A stretch of 64,000 bases of DNA from Ruminococcus sp. GTDB lineage: Bacteria; Bacillota; Clostridia; Oscillospirales; Acutalibacteraceae. The notes beneath the pieces were generated by a model. That model worked only from the letters and a program-made list of their open reading frames with translations. It ran no database searches and was not told the DNA's origin. The translations under genes and the position numbers were made by a program. Each line of letters begins with the position of its first letter. Within the stretch, counting starts at the first letter, position 1. The DNA lies in assembly GCA_022779485.1 (NCBI GenBank), contig JALFTC010000013.1, forward strand, positions 34,240 to 98,239, written 5' to 3'. Shown here one piece after another: positions 3,712-29,169 of this stretch.

Positions 3712-4812
3712 ATGAAATTTACTTGTTCAAGAACAGACTTAAGCAACGCTGTTACAAATGTTCAAAGGGCAGTTGCAACTAAATCTTCAATACCTTCACT
3801 TGAAGGAATACTTATAAAAGCATATGACGGTTTTCTTAACCTGTCAGGTTATGACCTTGAAATCGGTATTACAACAGATGTTGAAGCCCAACTTGACAGT
3901 GAGGGAGAAATTGTTGTTTCAGCCAGACTTTTCGGTGACATTATAAGAAAGCTTCCCGAGGAAGTTGTAACCATTGAAACAGACGAAAGAATGGTAACCT
4001 ACATAACAAGCGGTAATGCGTCATATCAAATTGTAGGACTTTCCGCAACAGAATATCCCGACCTGCCTAAATTTGAAGAAACCGACAAGATAGTAATCAA
4101 GGGCGGACTTTTGAGGGATATGATTCGCCAGACAATCTATGCTGTTTCCGACAACACATCAAAGCCTATCTACACAGGCTCACTGTTTGAAATCAAGGAC
4201 AAGGTATTAACCATTGTTGCCATTGACGGTTACAGAATGGCTATTCGTAAAGAGGCAATCGACAGTGATTCCGAAAACAGCTTTGTTATTCCAAAGAAAA
4301 CACAGAGTGAAGTGCTAAAGCTGATAACAGATGATGAAGAAAATGTGGAAATTGTTATCGGTCAGCGACACACACTGTTTAAGGTTGGTTCTTTCTATGT
4401 TATTTCAAGACTGATTGAAGGTCAGTTTATCGACTATAATTCTACAATTCCCAAGGGAAATGATACAGAGGTTGTTGTAAATACAAGGGAAATCGGTTCT
4501 TCTGTTGAAAGAATGAGCCTTTTGGCAAATGAAAAAATTCCATCCCCTGTAAAATGTGTTTTCAGTGATGATGAAATAAAGATGACCTGTAAAACATCAA
4601 TGGGAAAGGCAAATGATGTAATAAGCACAACAATAGCCGGAAGTGATGTTGAAATAGGCTTTAACAACAGATATTTACTTGACGCAATCAAGAATTGCGA
4701 TACAGACGAGGTAAAGCTAATTCTTAACGGAGGACTTTCACCAATGATAATTAAACCGGTAAAAAGCGACAGCTTTTTATACCTTGTAGTACCAATGAGA
4801 ATATCACAATGA
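3712..4812 (+). CDS. dnaN: DNA polymerase III beta sliding clamp
   Basis: 366 aa; [32 protein letters not shown]-terminal VVPMR. Confidence 0.97.
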
Positions 4813-21296: not shown

Positions 21297-21758
21297 ATGG
21301 ACAGACAGATTATTTTTGTAGGAGGAAAGAGGTTTACTATCGTTACTGACGAAAGCGAAGCCTATATGAAAAAGCTGGTTGAAAGAGTTGACACAAGGCT
21401 AAAGTCAATTATTTCCTCAAACCCAAAGTTAGATAAGGATTCAGCCGCCATACTTGCCTCTTTGGACTACTGTGACGAGGAGTACAAGCTCCGCCAAAAG
21501 CTTGAGGATGTTAAGGAGCAGATTAAGGATTACATTGAAGATACTGCAAGGCTCCACAAGGAAATTGCCCAGTTAAAGGCACAAAATGTGATTTTGCAGG
21601 ACAAGATTAACAAAATCCTCAACATCACTCCAACAGAGGATAAAAAGACACAGCAAAAGGAAAAGAAGATTATAGCCACAGGCAAAATAGAACATTCTGT
21701 TCCAAAAATTTTAGACGGTGCTGTTCAGCAGAGCCTTTTTAACAATGAAAAAAATTGA
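21297..21758 (+). CDS. zapA: Cell division protein ZapA with a C-terminal extension
   Basis: IFVGGKRFTIVTDESEAYMKKLVERVD...AAILASLD ZapA pattern, then a coiled coil and a disordered tail. Confidence 0.8.
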   Translation: MDRQIIFVGGKRFTIVTDESEAYMKKLVERVDTRLKSIISSNPKLDKDSAAILASLDYCDEEYKLRQKLEDVKEQIKDYIEDTARLHKEIAQLKAQNVILQDKINKILNITPTEDKKTQQKEKKIIATGKIEHSVPKILDGAVQQSLFNNEKN

Positions 21759-23796
21759 GATTTTAGCTCCCTGCGGAGGTATTGACTCTGTAATCAGCAG
21801 TGTAAACAGCGGTGCAGACGCTGTTTACCTTGGACTTAAGGACTTTTCCGCAAGGAAGGACGCAAAAAATTTTACATTTGACGAGCTTAATCAGGCTGTT
21901 TCCTACTGTCACATCAGGGGAGTAAAGGTTTATGTCACAATGAACACCCTGATTTTTGACAGCGAGATGAAGTCGGCACTTGAAACTGTAAAAAGGGCAA
22001 CTGACTGCAACATTGACGCATTGATTGTACAGGATATTGGCTTTGCAAGTCTTGTGAGGAAAGCCTGTCCAAAGTTACCTTTGCACGGCTCAACACAGAT
22101 GAGTATTCACACCCTCAGCGGGGCAAAAATGCTGAAAGATATGGGCTTTAAAAGGGTTGTTTTAAGCCGTGAAATGTCAAGAGAAGAGATAAAGTATATC
22201 GCAGATAATTGCGATATTGAGTTAGAGGTTTTTGTCCACGGGGCGCTTTGTATGAGCGTCAGCGGTCAGTGCTACTTTTCCGCAATGCTTGGCGGTCGCA
22301 GTGGTAACAGAGGCCGTTGCGCCCAAACCTGCCGACTTCCCTTTACAGTCAAGGGCAACGACCACGCACTTAGCCTGAAGGATAATTCAATCATTGACTA
22401 CATTGACGATATGGCCGAAATCGGCATAACCTCGGCAAAAATTGAGGGCAGAATGAAACGCCCCGAATATGTTTCCTCTGCTGTCCGTGCCTGTTACGAA
22501 AAGAGGGAAAAGGGTTTTATTTCCCAAAAAACATTGGAAAATTTAAGGAATGTTTTTTCCCGAACAGGCTTTACACAGGGATATTACACAGGTCAGTTGG
22601 GCAGGGAAATGTTTGGCTTTCGCAAAAGAGAGGATGTAATTTCCGCAACAGAAAGCCTTTTTAAGGAAATTCGCAATTCATACAAGGACGAAATGCCAAG
22701 AGTTCCCCTTAAGGGGAAATTTACTGCAAGGCTTGGGGAATTTCCGATATTCGAAATCACAGACGGTGAAAATACAGTTGCTGTAAAGGGAGAAGAACAG
22801 GCGGAAAAAGCCATAAAACTCCCACTTGACAGGGAAAAGGCTGAAAAACAGCTTTCAAAAACAGGTGGAACTCCCTTTTATTTTGACAATATTTCCACAG
22901 AAATTGAGGATAATATAAGTATCCCCATTTCGTCCCTTAACAAGCTAAGACGAAATGCTTTGGATGAAATTGCAGACAAGAGGGATTTTTCTCACCACTA
23001 CTCCTTTACAATGCCAAGCCTTAGTATTACCCCTGCAAACCAAGGAATTACGGAAAAAAGGGCAGAGGTAAAGAAAATTGACAGCAATATAAGCACTGAA
23101 TATGACCTTGTGTATGTTCCCATTGACTCAAAGGATGAGGATATTTCTTACCTTAGGTCAAAGGGTATAGAGGTTGGTGTGTCAGTTCCACGAGGACTAT
23201 TTGGCAGAGAAGAAAAAGTCATCAGCAGATTAAAGGAACTAAAAGAAAAGGGAATAAATCATCTGCTGTGCAACAACCTCGGTGCTGTCTATTTTGGCAA
23301 GGCACTTGGGTTTAAGGTACACGGCGGAGAATTTTTAAACCTTACAAATACATTTTCCCTAATTTGGGCAGAGGATTACGGTCTTGAGGATGTAACACTT
23401 TCCATTGAGCTTACTGTGGAGCAGATTAACGCACTTGGGGGAAATATAAGGAGAGGTGTTGTCGCCTACGGATATATACCACTTATGCTCACTCGGAACT
23501 GCCCTGTAAAAAGCGGAAATGAGGATTGCAGAACTTGCAAAAAAAGAGGAAAAATGCAAGACCGTAAGAATTACCAATTTTCTCTATATTGCGACGGAAT
23601 TTGCACTGAGGTACTGAATTCGGTACCGCTTTTAATTCCTGAAAGGAATAAAAAAGAGTTTTTCACATTTTTCACAACGGACAGGTTCTATGTGGAAAAC
23701 TATGTGGAAAAAGTGGAAAACTACAAGGGAAACCATAGTAAAACTCTGGAAAAAGTTAATTTTACCCGTGGATTGTATTATCGTGGGGTTAAATAA
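21745..23796 (+). CDS. U32 family protein with a long C-terminal region (RlhA/TrhP-like RNA hydroxylation protein; start moved to ATG 21745)
   Basis: EILAPCG, GADAVYLG, HGSTQM, HGALCMSVSGQC...NRGRCAQTCR Fe-S cysteines, KIEGRMK, terminal FTRGLYYRGV. Confidence 0.85.
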   Translation: MKKIEILAPCGGIDSVISSVNSGADAVYLGLKDFSARKDAKNFTFDELNQAVSYCHIRGVKVYVTMNTLIFDSEMKSALETVKRATDCNIDALIVQDIGFASLVRKACPKLPLHGSTQMSIHTLSGAKMLKDMGFKRVVLSREMSREEIKYIADNCDIELEVFVHGALCMSVSGQCYFSAMLGGRSGNRGRCAQTCRLPFTVKGNDHALSLKDNSIIDYIDDMAEIGITSAKIEGRMKRPEYVSSAVRACYEKREKGFISQKTLENLRNVFSRTGFTQGYYTGQLGREMFGFRKREDVISATESLFKEIRNSYKDEMPRVPLKGKFTARLGEFPIFEITDGENTVAVKGEEQAEKAIKLPLDREKAEKQLSKTGGTPFYFDNISTEIEDNISIPISSLNKLRRNALDEIADKRDFSHHYSFTMPSLSITPANQGITEKRAEVKKIDSNISTEYDLVYVPIDSKDEDISYLRSKGIEVGVSVPRGLFGREEKVISRLKELKEKGINHLLCNNLGAVYFGKALGFKVHGGEFLNLTNTFSLIWAEDYGLEDVTLSIELTVEQINALGGNIRRGVVAYGYIPLMLTRNCPVKSGNEDCRTCKKRGKMQDRKNYQFSLYCDGICTEVLNSVPLLIPERNKKEFFTFFTTDRFYVENYVEKVENYKGNHSKTLEKVNFTRGLYYRGVK

Positions 23797-23841
23797 TGTG
23801 AAAAACTTTATATTTTGTTAAAAGAATATTTATGTGGAAAA
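23659..23841. promoter_or_regulatory. DnaA-box cluster (6 exact TTWTNCACA plus 2 single-mismatch sites)
   Basis: Plus strand: TTTTTCACA 23659-67 and 23668-76. Minus strand: TGTGGAAAA 23691-99, 23703-11, 23833-41 and TGTGAAAAA 23797-805; near matches AGTGGAAAA 23712-20 and TCTGGAAAA ~23746. Confidence 0.75.
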
Positions 23842-23867
23842 CTTTTATTTTCTGTTACAGAATTAAT

Positions 23868-23896
23868 TTGTGAAGTGTTTATTAACAGTTTATAAT
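23868..23896 (+). promoter_or_regulatory. Putative dut promoter
   Basis: TTGTGA-17 bp-TATAAT immediately downstream of the last DnaA box. Confidence 0.5.
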
Positions 23897-23979
23897 TATA
23901 TTATTTTAAAGAATTTATATAGAGAATTAAGAACATAAAATTGCAAGATAACATAGATTTTTGCAGGAAGGTGGAGTAA

Positions 23980-24423
23980 ATGGAAACATTAAAGATAAAA
24001 AGGATACGAAAGGATGCAAAAATCCCAAAAAGGGCAACTCCCGGCTCGGCAGGTATGGACTTGTGCGCCTGTATTGAACAGGAGGTCACAATAAACCCCG
24101 GCGATTTGGTGATAATTCCAACAGGAATTGCCATTGCTCTGCCCTCAAATAAATATATGGCAAACATCTATGCCCGCAGCGGATTGGGAGTGAAACACGG
24201 GATTTGCCTTTCTAACGGTGTGGGTGTTGTTGACAGCGACTACCGTGGGGAAGTTTGCGTTGGTCTTTGTAATGTTTCAAAAAAACCATACACCGTAACA
24301 CCGGGAGAAAGAGTTGCCCAGCTTGTGACTCAACCTGTTTCTGTTATGGAAACTGAAGAGGTGGATGAATTGGACGACACTTCCCGAGGGGAAGGTGGCT
24401 TTGGCTCAACAGGAAAAAAATAA
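23980..24423 (+). CDS. dut: dUTP pyrophosphatase
   Basis: GSAGMDL, ARSGL, GVVDSDYRGE, RGEGGFGSTG. Confidence 0.96.
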   Translation: METLKIKRIRKDAKIPKRATPGSAGMDLCACIEQEVTINPGDLVIIPTGIAIALPSNKYMANIYARSGLGVKHGICLSNGVGVVDSDYRGEVCVGLCNVSKKPYTVTPGERVAQLVTQPVSVMETEEVDELDDTSRGEGGFGSTGKK

Positions 24424-24456
24424 TTTTCTCCGCCTGCTTAATACCCCTTATTGCAG

Positions 24457-24485
24457 TTGAAAATTACAAATTTTTAGGGTATAAT
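24457..24485 (+). promoter_or_regulatory. SigA-type promoter of the mreB operon
   Basis: TTGAAA-17 bp-TATAAT. Confidence 0.7.
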
Positions 24486-24555
24486 ATTTTGGAAAAACAC
24501 TTAAGGAAACACTGAATAAATCACATTGAAAGATTGTGAAAGGTAGATTGATAAT

Positions 24556-25563
24556 ATGTTTACTAAAGACATTGGTATAGATTTGGGAACAGCCAACACC
24601 CTTGTTTATATGAAGGGAAAGGGAATTGTACTGCGTGAACCCTCTGTTGTTGCTGTTGATATTCGTCAGGACACCGTACTTGCAGTTGGCGCTCAGGCTA
24701 AGGAGATGATAGGCAGAACTCCCGGCTCTATCGCCGCCATAAGACCTCTTAAGGACGGAGTTATTGCCGACTTTGAGATTACGGCAATTATGCTGAAGCA
24801 CTTTATCCGCAAGGTTGTTCACAGCAACTTTTTCTCCCGTCCCAGAATAGTTATTTGTATTCCAAGCGGAGTTACTCAGGTTGAAAGACGAGCTGTTGAG
24901 GACGCCGCCATTCAGGCAGGCGGTAAGGATGTTGAGCTTATTGAAGAGCCTATGGCTGCCGCTATCGGTGCAGGACTTCCTGTTGCAGAGCCAACAGGAA
25001 GTATGGTTGTTGACATTGGCGGAGGTACATCCGAGGTTGCAGTAATTTCCCTTGGTGACATTGTTGCCCACAATTCCGTAAGGGTTGCCGGTGACAAATT
25101 TGACGAGGCAATTATGACCTACATCAAGAAGAAGTATGGACTTACCATTGGTGAAAGAACAGCCGAAGAGATTAAAATGGAAATCGGCTCTGCTTTTCCT
25201 CACGAAAACGAAGGAAGTATGACAATCAAGGGCAGAAATACCATTGACGGACTTCCAAAGGATGTTACCATTACAGCAGAAGAGGTGAGGAATGCACTTG
25301 CATCTCCCCTTGCAGCGATTATTGACGGAGTACTTGACACCCTTGAAAAAACTCCGCCTGAGCTTGCCGCCGACATTATCGACAGAGGAATTACCCTCAC
25401 AGGCGGCGGAGCATTACTAAAGGGCATTGATTTACTTGTAAGCAAACAGACAGGTATTCCTGTTCACATTGCAGACAGACCTCTTGACTGCGTAGCAGAC
25501 GGCGCAGGAAAAAGGCTTGAAACTGTAATGCCAAAGGAATATTACCGTGACAGAAGAAGATAA
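24556..25563 (+). CDS. mreB: Rod shape-determining actin MreB
   Basis: [39 protein letters not shown]. Confidence 0.96.
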
Positions 25564-25575
25564 AAGGCAAAAAGA

Positions 25576-25676
25576 AACCCCACAATTTTGTTGTGGGGTT
25601 ATGGTTATATAACCCACTTCACTCTGTCATTATATTCCACCCTTGTTATGACATAATGGTGCGGAATGACAGAGTA
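25576..25676. repeat. Two hairpins in the mreB-mreC spacer; the second resembles a degenerate REP doublet
   Basis: AACCCCACAA/TTGTGGGGTT; ACTCTGTCATT...AATGACAGAGT, sharing the CTGTCATT/GAATGACAG core with other repeats in the window. Confidence 0.55.
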
Positions 25677-25764
25677 GTTGTAATTAAAAAAATTAATTCT
25701 GCATTTTGCATTCTGACTTTCGCATTCCCATCCCCCTCCGTTGGAGGTTTTTATAAAGAGGTTT

Positions 25765-26625
25765 ATGATGAAGGATATTTTTAAAACGAAAAATTTTAAA
25801 ATTCTCATAGCAACGCTTATCATTATTATAATGTGCATAGGCGTATCTTCTGTTTTTGACACAAGTATAATTTCCAGTACAGTTGGCTACATAACCACAG
25901 GTATGCAAAGGGTTTCAGCCACAGTAATCGGCGGAGAAAACAAAAAGTCCTATGATGAGCTTGAGGCGGAAAATCAACAGCTTAAAAAAGAGGTTGCATC
26001 CCTTAGAACCCGTCTTGCCGACTACGAGGATATTAAGGAAGAAAATGCAAGACTTTGGAAGTATTACGAACTAAAGCAGGAAAACAGCGGTTATGACTTT
26101 GTTCCGGCGTCAGTAATTCGCCGTGACCCGGGGGAACTTTTCTACTCCTTTACAATAGACAGAGGAACAGGAGATGACATTTCCTTAAACGACCCTGTTG
26201 TCACCGAAAACGGCCTTGTGGGATATATCAGCGAAGTAAATAGAAGTTACAGCAAGGTTACTACCATACTTTCTCCCGACCTTTTGGCAGGTGCAAAGGA
26301 TGTGAAGTCAAAGGACACAGGTGTTATTAACGGAGATGCAGATTACAGCGACAAGAACCTTGTTACAATGAAAAAGCTGGCAGAAAATAACAAGATAAAA
26401 GTGGGCGACCAGATTTCTACAACAGGTATCGGTGGAATGTACCCCGAAAACATTTCGGTTGGAAAAGTGAAAGAGGTTAAGTACGACCATTTTGATACAA
26501 GCCTTTATGCTGTTATTGAGCCTTATGAGGACATTCAGAATGTTTCTGATGTTGTGGTTGTCACCTCCTTTGACGGACAGGGTGTAATTGAGGAAGGCAG
26601 TTTGCCTGAAAATACGGAGGATTAG
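25765..26625 (+). CDS. mreC: Rod shape-determining protein MreC
   Basis: N-terminal TM, coiled coil, FTIDRGTGDDISLNDPVVTENGLVG, STTGIGGMYP. Confidence 0.92.
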   Translation: MMKDIFKTKNFKILIATLIIIIMCIGVSSVFDTSIISSTVGYITTGMQRVSATVIGGENKKSYDELEAENQQLKKEVASLRTRLADYEDIKEENARLWKYYELKQENSGYDFVPASVIRRDPGELFYSFTIDRGTGDDISLNDPVVTENGLVGYISEVNRSYSKVTTILSPDLLAGAKDVKSKDTGVINGDADYSDKNLVTMKKLAENNKIKVGDQISTTGIGGMYPENISVGKVKEVKYDHFDTSLYAVIEPYEDIQNVSDVVVVTSFDGQGVIEEGSLPENTED

Positions 26626-26626
26626 T

Positions 26627-27142
26627 ATGGAAAGGAAGTACACCGTTCTCCGATATATGGCTTACAGCTTGGAAATACTGATTTTTTACATAATTCAAGG
26701 TGTGCCTGACCTTATCCCCAATGTGTTGGGGGGCAAACCCCTTTTGCTTATTCCCGTTGCCTTAACTATCGCCTGTTTTGAAAACGAAGTTCCTGCAATG
26801 GCTTTTGGCGTAGCCTGTGGCGGTATGATGGACTTTGGCGTTGGCACACATTTTGGCTTTTACACAATAGCCTTGGCGATAGTTTGTTTTTTCGTGGGAT
26901 ACTTTGCCGAAAATTATTTCAACACAAAGCTTGTTATTACTTTGATTATCTCTCTTGTGCTAATCCCCTTATTAATTAGCCTGAACTTTGTTATTAACTA
27001 TATTTTTGCAGGCTTCTCAAAGGGCGGTTACTACTTTGTTCATCACACCCTTGCTACTATGGGATACACATTTGTTACAGTTCCTGTTTTTTACGGAATA
27101 AACAGAGTGCTTAGCAGAGGTTTTAACGATAATTTGTTCTAA
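26627..27142 (+). CDS. mreD: Rod shape-determining protein MreD (start moved to ATG 26627)
   Basis: Hydrophobic; FGVACGGMMD pattern; position in operon. Confidence 0.85.
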   Translation: MERKYTVLRYMAYSLEILIFYIIQGVPDLIPNVLGGKPLLLIPVALTIACFENEVPAMAFGVACGGMMDFGVGTHFGFYTIALAIVCFFVGYFAENYFNTKLVITLIISLVLIPLLISLNFVINYIFAGFSKGGYYFVHHTLATMGYTFVTVPVFYGINRVLSRGFNDNLF

Positions 27143-27165
27143 ACGATAAATTTGGAGGTGGTTAT

Positions 27166-29169
27166 TTGGATACAGAAAGATATAGACGCAGGGGAATTCT
27201 TGTCCTGATAATCGCCCTGGTATTTTTTGCAGTTTTTGTTGTCAGGCTGTTCTTTTGGCAGGTTGTAGAGGGTGACAAGTACAAGGATATTGCATTAAAC
27301 AGCACAACCTTTTCACTTTCCTCCAACAGTACAAGGGGTGAGATTCTGACTTCTGACGGAAAGCCCCTTGCCACAAACAAAACTATTTACAACATTACCT
27401 TTAAAAAGAATTATGTAAAAGAAGAAAGTCTTAACGGCACCATACAAAAGGTGCTGAAAATTATGAAAATCCGCAACGAAAAGTGGGTGGATATGCTTCC
27501 CATAAAATACAGTAACGGCGGATATTCCTTTACAAATGACGATACAACACAGGACTCTCTTACATTTTTGCAGGGCGAAAGTATGCTTGACACCGGTGTT
27601 TATACTATGCCACAGCAGTATATGGAGGACCTTATAAAAAGGTATGAATGTGAAAATATTAAGGACAAAAATGAGCAAAGGGATGTAATTTCCGTCCGCT
27701 TTAATATGGAAATGCAAAACTTTAGCTCTGTAAACGACTACACCTTTGCCGAGGATGTCAGCAACGATATGATGCAGATTATCTGTGAAAATAATCAAAA
27801 GTTTGACGGTGTTGAAATCACCACAACAGTTGAAAGGCAGTACCTGAACGGTACACTTGCACCTCACATTGTGGGAACAGTGGGACAAATCAACGCCGAG
27901 GAATACGAGGACAAAAAGGACAAGGGTTACGGCTACAACGACCTTATCGGTAAGTTCGGCATTGAGAGAGTTTTTGAAAGTCAGCTTAGGGGCGAAGCCG
28001 GAAAGGCTTATATTGAAAGGAACAACAACGGCTCTGTTGTCCGCACAGTTGAGGCACAGGACGCAAAGCCGGGTAATTCCGTTTGGCTCACCATTGACAG
28101 CGAACTTCAAAAAATTGCTGATGATTCACTAAAATATAATGTTGACACCTGCCACAGCGAGGAGGCAAAGGACTGTGTAGCCGGTGCTGTTGTTATGCTT
28201 GATGTAAAGGACTTTTCCGTACTGGCGGCTGCTACCTACCCAAGCTATGATTTGTCAAAATACAACAACTACAAGTACTATTCAAAGCTTGCAAATGACG
28301 AAACAAGTCCCCTTTATTCCAGGGCATTCAGCGGTGCTTTTGCACCCGGCTCTGTGTTCAAGCCCTGTGTTGCACTTGCCGGTCTTGAGGAGGGCAAAAT
28401 CACAGAGAACAGCACTATTGTTTGTACCCAAAACTACGACTACTACCCAACGGATATTGTAAGGTGTATGGGATATCACAACGGAATTAGTCTTAACACA
28501 GCACTTGCAGTTTCCTGTAACTATTACTTTGCCGAGGTGGGCAGAAAGCTGGGAATTAACACCATTTACAGCTATGCCGAAAAGTTCGGTTTGGGACTTC
28601 CCACAGGTGTTGAGATTGACGAAAGCACAGGTATCCTTGCCGGTCGTGACAGTACCCATTGGACAGCCGGTAACACCGTTCAGGCGGCAATAGGTCAAAG
28701 TGACAATGCCTTTACACCTGCACAGCTTGCCACATATGTGGCAACAATAGCCAACGACGGCACAAGGCTTAAAACTCACCTTGTGGATAAAGTCACCACC
28801 TATGACAGAGAAAAAACCGTTGAAAAAACAGAGAGTGAAGTGGAGTCCACACTTAAGGTTGACAAGAAAAATCTTAAGGCAGTTCAAGAGGGTATGTGGA
28901 GCGTCTGCAACGAAGAGGACGGCACAGCCTACGGTATCTTCGGAAATTACGGTGTTGAGGTTGCCGCAAAAACAGGTACAGCGGAAAACAGCGGAACAGA
29001 CCACACAGTGTTTATGTGCTATGCCCCCTATGACAAGCCTGAGGTTGCAGTTGCTGTGGTAATTGAACACGGTGCTTTGAAGAAGTATTCCTGTGATGTT
29101 GCAAAAGCACTTTTGGACAAATACTTTTTTGATAAGGACTATGAACCGCAGAGTAATATGCTTTCTTAG
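27166..29169 (+). CDS. mrdA: Class B penicillin-binding protein 2 (elongasome transpeptidase; TTG start)
   Basis: RGEILTSDG; SxxK (GSVFK), SxN (SCN), KTG; follows mreBCD. Confidence 0.88.
   Translation: MDTERYRRRGILVLIIALVFFAVFVVRLFFWQVVEGDKYKDIALNSTTFSLSSNSTRGEILTSDGKPLATNKTIYNITFKKNYVKEESLNGTIQKVLKIMKIRNEKWVDMLPIKYSNGGYSFTNDDTTQDSLTFLQGESMLDTGVYTMPQQYMEDLIKRYECENIKDKNEQRDVISVRFNMEMQNFSSVNDYTFAEDVSNDMMQIICENNQKFDGVEITTTVERQYLNGTLAPHIVGTVGQINAEEYEDKKDKGYGYNDLIGKFGIERVFESQLRGEAGKAYIERNNNGSVVRTVEAQDAKPGNSVWLTIDSELQKIADDSLKYNVDTCHSEEAKDCVAGAVVMLDVKDFSVLAAATYPSYDLSKYNNYKYYSKLANDETSPLYSRAFSGAFAPGSVFKPCVALAGLEEGKITENSTIVCTQNYDYYPTDIVRCMGYHNGISLNTALAVSCNYYFAEVGRKLGINTIYSYAEKFGLGLPTGVEIDESTGILAGRDSTHWTAGNTVQAAIGQSDNAFTPAQLATYVATIANDGTRLKTHLVDKVTTYDREKTVEKTESEVESTLKVDKKNLKAVQEGMWSVCNEEDGTAYGIFGNYGVEVAAKTGTAENSGTDHTVFMCYAPYDKPEVAVAVVIEHGALKKYSCDVAKALLDKYFFDKDYEPQSNMLS

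Follow-up and report, generated by a model that had tools for sequence, protein, structure and literature searches.

The MatP-ZapB-ZapA link joins the terminus to the Z-ring, with ZapA as its ring-side end. A long-standing question, open above all in bacteria without Min or nucleoid occlusion, is how replication is coordinated with where and when the division ring forms. A tetrameric coiled-coil hub that binds the sliding clamp DnaN is known from Bacillus subtilis in the form of YabA, the architecture of which was called reminiscent of ZapA (PMC4705661), and in E. coli the clamp is bound by CrfC, a non-polymerase oligomer that organises nucleoids (PMC6374313). The clamp-binding consensus is given as QxxLF or QL[SD]LF (PMC12926913; PMC11381352), the Gln and Phe being the hallmark residues of the pentapeptide (PMC11381352), and QSSLF of PolA2 is accepted as a QxxLF clamp motif (PMC12926913). 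For FtsZ, the C-terminal tail is laid out as a linker (CTL), a conserved peptide (CTC) and a variable end (CTV) (PMC9939409).

The window, the whole stretch of 64,000 nucleotides that was analysed, comes from an assembly of 2.02 Mb (39.6% G+C, 94.8% complete), and its named relatives, Ruminococcus sp. MAGs and Ruminococcoides intestinihominis (69% identity), place it in the R. bromii group, which comprises abundant and ecologically important bacteria of the human and animal gut. The zapA coding sequence lies at 21297-21758 on the plus strand (153 aa plus stop) and was recognised from the ORF list, Pfam and Foldseek; its product ends in ...KILDGAVQQSLFNNEKN, another excerpt of the same end being ...KKIIATGKIEHSVPKILDGAVQQSLFNNEKN. 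The Pfam ZapA profile PF05164 matches residues 8-94 above its curated cut-off (E=1.5e-16, 60.9 bits against 23.8). The score with the NCBIfam ZapA equivalog profile is below the cut-off (39.7 against 80), so the protein is a divergent member of the family.

An AF2 model (m2cde983d1891), for which 17 homologues were the alignment input, has pLDDT values of 73-94 across the folded part (21300-21617, plus strand), which consists of strands at residues 2-17, a helix at 21-41 and a coiled-coil-type helix at 47-107, that is, the beta-beta-alpha head and long coiled-coil helix of the ZapA fold. The best 11 PDB matches in Foldseek were exclusively ZapA structures, including 2MMV, 1T3U/1W2E, 4P1M, 9ISJ and the FtsZ-ZapA complex 9ISK, and the TM-scores, normalised by target length, were 0.76 to 2MMV and 0.79 to 9ISK_G, both of them ZapA chains. 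The head domain and the long helix are common to these structures and the window protein. The sequence-only reading had called a ZapA of 153 aa longer than usual, and this is indeed the case, as the solved ZapAs have 86-107 aa and end after the coiled coil, while the window protein goes on for a disordered tail of about 45 aa. In relatives, the added tail reaches up to about 150 aa and closes with a conserved peptide that the solved ZapAs do not have. The window protein is predicted, from its sequence, to be an ordinary FtsZ-bundling ZapA to which a disordered tail of around 45 residues was added.

The tail (residues 113-153; 21633-21755, plus strand) has pLDDT below 50 throughout, and in the AF2 monomer it is modelled without confident docking onto the ZapA head. 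The earlier description of a charged, disordered linker with the motif on a flexible C-terminal segment agrees with this, the 46-residue tail having 8 K/R and 6 D/E. A conserved block, KKIIATGKIE (residues 123-132; 21663-21692, plus strand), was seen upstream of the motif in the homologue alignment, in which K123 and G129 are almost invariant at 56-72% identity, and related [IL]A[FY]xGK blocks are present in other ZapAs of the genus. The conserved motif itself, QQSLF (residues 144-148; 21726-21740, plus strand), is a short linear motif of the clamp-binding type Q-x-S-L-F: position 1 is Q, position 4 hydrophobic and position 5 F. It is followed by a short polar and charged end, NNEKN (21741-21755, plus strand), which in relatives is 3-26 residues long and mostly acidic.

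The 3' neighbour of zapA is a gene of the U32 peptidase family, TrhP-like (21745-23796, plus strand; Pfam Peptidase_U32, E=1.7e-73). Its start was placed at the ATG at 21745 because the TrhP profile aligns from residue 1; the two genes therefore overlap by 14 nt (21745-21758), QQSLF ends 4 nt upstream of the U32 ATG, and its codons are outside the overlap, as had been claimed. The synteny of zapA and the U32 gene is kept across the genus, with intergenic gaps of -23 to +173 nt. The proposed partner, dnaN, was correctly located at 3712-4812 (plus strand), where all three DNA_pol3_beta domains were matched (E=1e-38 to 3e-24). From 21297 to 29169 the gene order is zapA, U32, dut, mreB, mreC, mreD and PBP2, with no minCDE past mreD. 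Three TTTTCCACA sites (DnaA box with one mismatch) are clustered on the minus strand where the U32 gene ends and shortly ahead of dut (23691-23699, 23703-23711 and 23833-23841); across the window, 33 one-mismatch DnaA boxes were observed and 20 expected.

The tail motif is kept in all 54 distinct ZapA sequences of the genus set (Ruminococcoides / R. bromii group), 50 times as Q-x-[ST]-[LIF]-F and four times as QLFSLF, and it was found in 23/23 other genomes of the same GTDB genus and at 33/33 named loci. In those 23 genomes the folded part is only 22-42% identical, and the tails, 60-160 residues long and charged, are unalignable. ZapA lengths in the genus run from 153 to 264 aa, the linker being hypervariable in size and sequence. 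Close homologues (57-100% identity) invariably keep GA[VI]QQ[ST]LF, and the endings found in the genus include KGY-x-P-x-RQYSLF[DE], LQ[FY]SIFDTDFI, RQISLFENE, RQYSFFD, EQGSLFDDE and AQLFSLFD. The only element common to all of the genus tails is Q-x-S-L-F; the blocks ahead of it differ by subclade, with KGY-x-P-x-R in most of the genus and KKIIATGKIE-x-SVPKILDGA in the window's group, and in one subclade there is also a His-rich block, KKRH-x-H-x-H-x-NP[YF]K, as well as [ED]DDL[SF]F[DE] in the mid-linker. The recurrent tail blocks of the genus also take in [IL]-A-[FTY]-x-G-K, represented in the window by KKIIATGKIE. The mid-linker block, which in its longer form reads [ST][AS][ED]DDL[SF]F[DE] in one subclade, looks like the acidic tip of SSB as well as like the older motif of ZapA tails.

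Within the motif, Ser is encoded by AGY (7) and TCN (14) and Leu by CTT, CTC, CTG and TTG, which is synonymous turnover. The distance to the C-terminus varies from 3 to 26 residues, and the motif is retained where the U32 gene starts 35-173 nt downstream and where 12-26 residues come after it. When the 46-aa tail of the window was shuffled, Q.[ST][LIF]F appeared in 413 of 200,000 trials (about 0.2% per tail). The QQSLF-type motif is under purifying selection at the protein level, because the codons, the distance to the end and the spacing to the U32 gene all vary around it. Conservation among orthologues, on which the sequence-only reading depended, was found throughout the genus (54/54) and in two neighbouring genera, and it does not extend to 31 other genera of the family.

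To compare the motif with those of other proteins in the same genome, a crude ORF set of the entire assembly was scanned for Q-x-S-[LIF]-F and the matches were annotated with Pfam. PolC has ...ESSQISLF at its extreme C-terminus, in DnaE, EGQLSFFDMG is internal, at residue 915, where such a motif usually lies, two Y-family (DinB-like) polymerases have QMSLFS and QLSFFQ immediately past the IMS_C domain, and a Dam-type methylase has IQMSLFDNE in the tail ...IQMSLFDNEQERVD; an Eco57I-type methylase has an internal match, and the further matches were in a few folded, membrane or secreted proteins. Real proteins with a match in the last 60 aa were PolC, the two DinB-like polymerases, Dam, ZapA and one secreted protein. 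The C-terminus of PolC is Q-[MILV]-[ST]-[LFM]-F in 30/30 genomes of the family, and the ZapA motif fits those of PolC, DnaE, the Y-family polymerases and Dam at every constrained position. The Dam-type enzyme is a D12-class adenine methyltransferase of 323 aa (contig C34:8564-9535, minus strand), with its clamp-motif-like tail ...RESPIQMSLFDNEQERVD located 19 residues from the end, and it may carry out DNA methylation at the replication fork.

The wider family gives a different picture of the tail. ZapA was sampled in 151 genomes of the same GTDB family, one per genus, of which 90 were read, and the counts leave out the window's own genus. Among ZapAs of at least 140 aa, a related motif is present in 32/47 and, in degenerate form, in about six others; below 140 aa, 39/40 are without a tail motif, which rules out the motif as a general ZapA feature. 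It was also absent from all ZapAs that were read outside the family, 30 from other Clostridia families and 7 from elsewhere in the order. The long tails of 31 further genera within the family read [DE]-[FIVML]-[MIL]-[SN]-[FL]-F-[EDN]-x-K, typically E-[FI]-M-S-F-F-E-K-K, so that position 1 is hydrophobic and there is no Q. Examples are PEQE[GS]F[MIV]SFFEKK, AEIMSFFEQK, EDIMSFFG, EIMNFFE, EDMLSFFD, EEMMSFFN, GEFMSLFD and, in another excerpt, ...EQEGFMSFFEKK. Many of these Q-less tails (L069, L074, L083, L090, L099, L104) read Q-E-[GS]-F-[MIV]-S-F-F or Q-Q-N-F-M-D-F-F, which is formally the eukaryotic/archaeal PCNA-interacting (PIP-box) pattern Q-x-x-hydrophobic-x-x-F-F; the likeness is probably coincidental.

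These Q-less tails resemble the C-terminal peptide of FtsZ. In the genome of the window, FtsZ ends in ...DDDEDDTFYDIMSIFNK, which includes TFYDIMSIFNK, and FYDIMSIFNK is invariant in 28 genomes of the genus and near-invariant in 30 other genera (F-x-DIMSIFNRK). The sister-genus ZapA tails share with it an acidic run, followed by a hydrophobic residue with M-S-[IF]-F and, after these, a polar residue plus K/R, and they match the FtsZ peptide of the same genome; their FtsZ-likeness follows from the hydrophobic position 1 together with the flanks. The window ZapA has the layout of an FtsZ tail (disordered linker, short conserved peptide, short variable end), and when its end GAVQQSLFNNEKN is set against TFYDIMSIFNK of its own FtsZ, only S-[IL]-F-N is common and the peptides do not match. 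In three other Clostridia families, ZapA ends in [VI]DIPRR[NS]RR or YDV.RRARR and the FtsZ of these families in the canonical LDIPTFLRRNR. These short ZapAs (102-109 aa; L247, L248, L257, L267, L274; compared with the FtsZ loci L285, L286, L297, L300 and L301), which also include an IYDLPKKIRRQ ending, are FtsZ-like but without TFL, and with such ends ZapA may imitate the FtsZ tail in another, independently acquired way.

Compared with the FtsZ tail of its own genome, the genus ZapA motif has an invariant Q for I at position 1, a relaxed residue (Y/F/Q/I/G, mostly Y, F or Q) for M at position 2 and L for I at position 4. The residue ahead of the motif is mostly R in ZapA and D in FtsZ, the net charge of the 15 residues upstream is +2.4 against -5.3, and the end past the motif is acidic in ZapA and basic in FtsZ. 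For comparison, the upstream charge is -2.6 in the sister-genus ZapA tails and -1.0 in PolC. A six-residue log-odds matrix of clamp against FtsZ tail was derived within the family (34 clamp motifs, 57 FtsZ tails); on this scale, where true clamp motifs score +18.6 bits and FtsZ tails -19.4, the window motif scores +14.0 bits, all 54 genus ZapAs are positive (median +14) and the Q-less sister-genus tails are in between (-11 to +12 bits, median +3.8). Judged by its residues, QQSLFNNE is indistinguishable from a local clamp motif, and the Q-less tails may also bind the clamp.

When 55 genomes are arranged by an FtsZ tree, the Q-type tails fall together in a single group that requires one change (support 90/50) and is nested among Q-less lineages; it consists of the genus and two neighbouring genera with the endings PRQYSFF and KKQQSFFDND. 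On this tree the Q-type is a distinct, derived class, which arose once among Q-less, FtsZ-tail-like forms. It may be that the ancestral site was converted into the motif of the genus, or else that this motif is an addition and the old site is represented by DDL[SF]F[DE] in the mid-linker. When the terminal motifs of genus and sister genera were compared via the NP-Y-K/R block, the similarity was weak.

SepF was found in 30/30 genomes sampled, and in the window's genome it is a protein of 176 aa, encoded on contig C38 in the usual ylmE-sepF-ylmH cluster. The FtsA-specific domain PF02491 was found in 0/28 genomes of the order and in both outgroups; no FtsA was found in the window's genome, where the sole match to the FtsA domain is MreB, and SepF is the only known membrane anchor found in these genomes. 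The FtsZ C-terminal peptide of the order (FtsZ of this genome at contig C16:143619-144710; other loci L121-L179, L276-L305) has no proline: instead of D-I-P-x-F-L-R-R, which is canonical, it reads F-x-D-I-M-S-I-F-N-R-K or a variant of this. FtsA is present in the two outgroup Clostridia, whose FtsZ carries the canonical form, and the FtsZ tail may have become free to diverge once FtsA was lost. No MinD-type protein was found in the assembly (94.8% complete) by a regex for MinD/ParA-type Walker A, which is weak evidence; the sole match of the deviant-Walker-A regex was a Soj-like protein (C11:26670-27443). The Min system may be absent, and the lack of a MinD-type match fits, weakly, a need for another positioning cue.

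We give about an even chance to the reading that Q-x-S-L-F of the Ruminococcoides / R. bromii clade and the two neighbouring genera is a beta-clamp-binding motif that tethers ZapA to DNA-loaded DnaN. This reading is favoured because each position that became fixed in the clade is one that is required by the local clamp motif. The fuller account, that an FtsZ-tail-like ZapA peptide was switched in the ancestor of the clade into a clamp-binding motif, giving a ZapA-DnaN tether between the Z-ring and replicating DNA, falls just short of even. Such a switch would have replaced the hydrophobic residue of position 1 by Q and the F of position 4 by L, and it would have reversed the flank charges. A ZapA tetramer, assumed from the solved ZapAs, could present as many as four flexible hooks, some 10 nm long or longer, which would dock on DNA-loaded DnaN in its hydrophobic pocket between domains II and III. 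ZapA could then be captured by clamps that stay behind on freshly replicated DNA, and the cross-linker of the Z-ring would be physically coupled to replicating DNA. ZapA could be held there until clamp unloading, acting as a timing device; alternatively, condensation of the ring could be biased to where replication occurs or ends. Binding of the tail to DnaN and its consequence, which we infer from the sequence, are plausible, and the divisome-replisome tether proposed in the sequence-only reading is in part supported, for this derived clade.

Several points speak against clamp binding. ZapA is not a DNA enzyme, and as the sister genera carry a Q-less, FtsZ-like tail, the default would be that the partner was retained. 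QMSLF of PolC and IMSIF of FtsZ differ by just 1-2 residues, and with the two motif classes this close within the family, a resemblance to the clamp motif is cheap. Position 2 is mostly Y, F or Q rather than L, M or I, and the QLFSLF subclade, with its acidic flank, is equally readable as the older form. The motif was also picked for resembling a clamp motif, and part of the match may be due to this selection bias.

It is somewhat unlikely, though clearly a competitor, that the motif still mimics the FtsZ C-terminal peptide and docks ZapA on a receptor of the FtsZ tail. Should the older tail motif be a mimic of the FtsZ tail, its likely receptor would be SepF; SepF was found in 30/30 genomes, and the FtsA-specific domain in 0/28 genomes of the order. 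Through such docking the cross-linker could gain its own attachment to the membrane or ring, or compete with FtsZ. The ZapA tails of 31 genera, which follow an acidic stretch (-2.6) and resemble the D-I-M-S-I-F-N-R-K of their own FtsZ (-5.3), are consistent with this, as are the ZapA ends of the three other Clostridia families, which likewise resemble their own FtsZ ends, the nesting of the Q-type among Q-less forms by one change in the FtsZ tree, and the S-[LI]-F-N that SLFN of the window still shares with SIFN of its FtsZ. However, the genus motif differs from the FtsZ tail at positions -1, 1, 2 and 4 and in both flanks, with reversed charges, and these differences are fixed over 54 sequences; a retained pocket for the FtsZ tail is hard to accept because the ZapA motif changed while the FtsZ tail did not. 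All 54 genus tails score as clamp-type, and co-variation of the ZapA and FtsZ tails within the family is weak (2/7 variant cases).

Less probable still is that the motif addresses another partner, or folds back on ZapA or FtsZ in the assembled ring, and that both likenesses are incidental. Conserved blocks that reach well past five residues, none of which a minimal clamp motif needs, would be accounted for in this way, but those upstream blocks are subclade-specific and only Q-x-S-L-F is genus-wide, and the AF2 monomer shows no confident contact between tail and head. Finally, short hydrophobic C-terminal peptides can act as protease tags, and in the window QQSLF is only 4 nt ahead of the ATG of the next gene, either of which could suggest that the motif is not a binding site but a chance match, a degradation tag or a by-product of constraint at the DNA level. 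This is very improbable. Chance, at about 0.2% per tail by shuffling, is ruled out by the 54/54 conservation; constraint from the start or ribosome-binding site of the U32 gene is ruled out by the synonymous codon variation and by the motif being kept with that gene at +35 to +173 nt; and a C-terminal degradation tag is ruled out by the position of the motif, 3-26 residues from the end.

No report of a contact between ZapA and the clamp, or of a ZapA with an FtsZ-tail-like peptide, was found in open-access papers and bioRxiv. If clamp binding is true, ZapA on the sliding clamp would be a direct and simple physical link in bacteria in which neither FtsA nor a MinD-type protein was found, and a previously undescribed coupling of replication and division. 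It is possible that a known protein family, ZapA, makes a new connection between two known machines. If instead the tail mimics FtsZ, a ZapA with a copy of the FtsZ tail, apparently undescribed, would alter the view of how the cross-linker is attached in divisomes that have only SepF. The docking peptides QMSLF (PolC) and IMSIF (FtsZ) are nearly alike and offer a natural example for the change of partner by short motifs.

Compared with the described systems, the ZapA tail has the three-part layout of the FtsZ C-terminal tail (PMC9939409). In the sister genera, its E-I-M-S-F-F-E-x-K is a near copy of the D-I-M-S-I-F-N-R-K of the family's FtsZ; in the window's clade, S-[LI]-F-[ND] alone is left in common, with Q for the hydrophobic residue at position 1 and reversed flank charges. 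Like QLDLF of B. subtilis Pol Y1 (PMC11381352) and QSSLF of PolA2 (PMC12926913), the ZapA motif has Q at position 1 and L-F at positions 4-5, and with the clamp clients of its own genome it shares S at position 3 and a place in a flexible terminal region. It differs from the usual clamp motifs in having Q, Y or F at position 2 rather than L, M or I, and ZapA is a cell-division protein, unlike the usual clients, which are DNA enzymes; the likeness is known here from sequence. The MatP-ZapB-ZapA link is proteobacterial and runs through ZapB and MatP rather than the clamp. CrfC is dynamin-like and unrelated to ZapA, and is a precedent for a non-polymerase clamp client. By analogy, the nearest architectural precedent is YabA, a DnaN-binding hub that, like the ZapA proposed here, is a coiled-coil tetramer and flexible in its C-terminal parts (PMC4705661), although it binds through a zinc-binding C-terminal domain, not a pentapeptide, and controls DnaA and the initiation of replication, not FtsZ.
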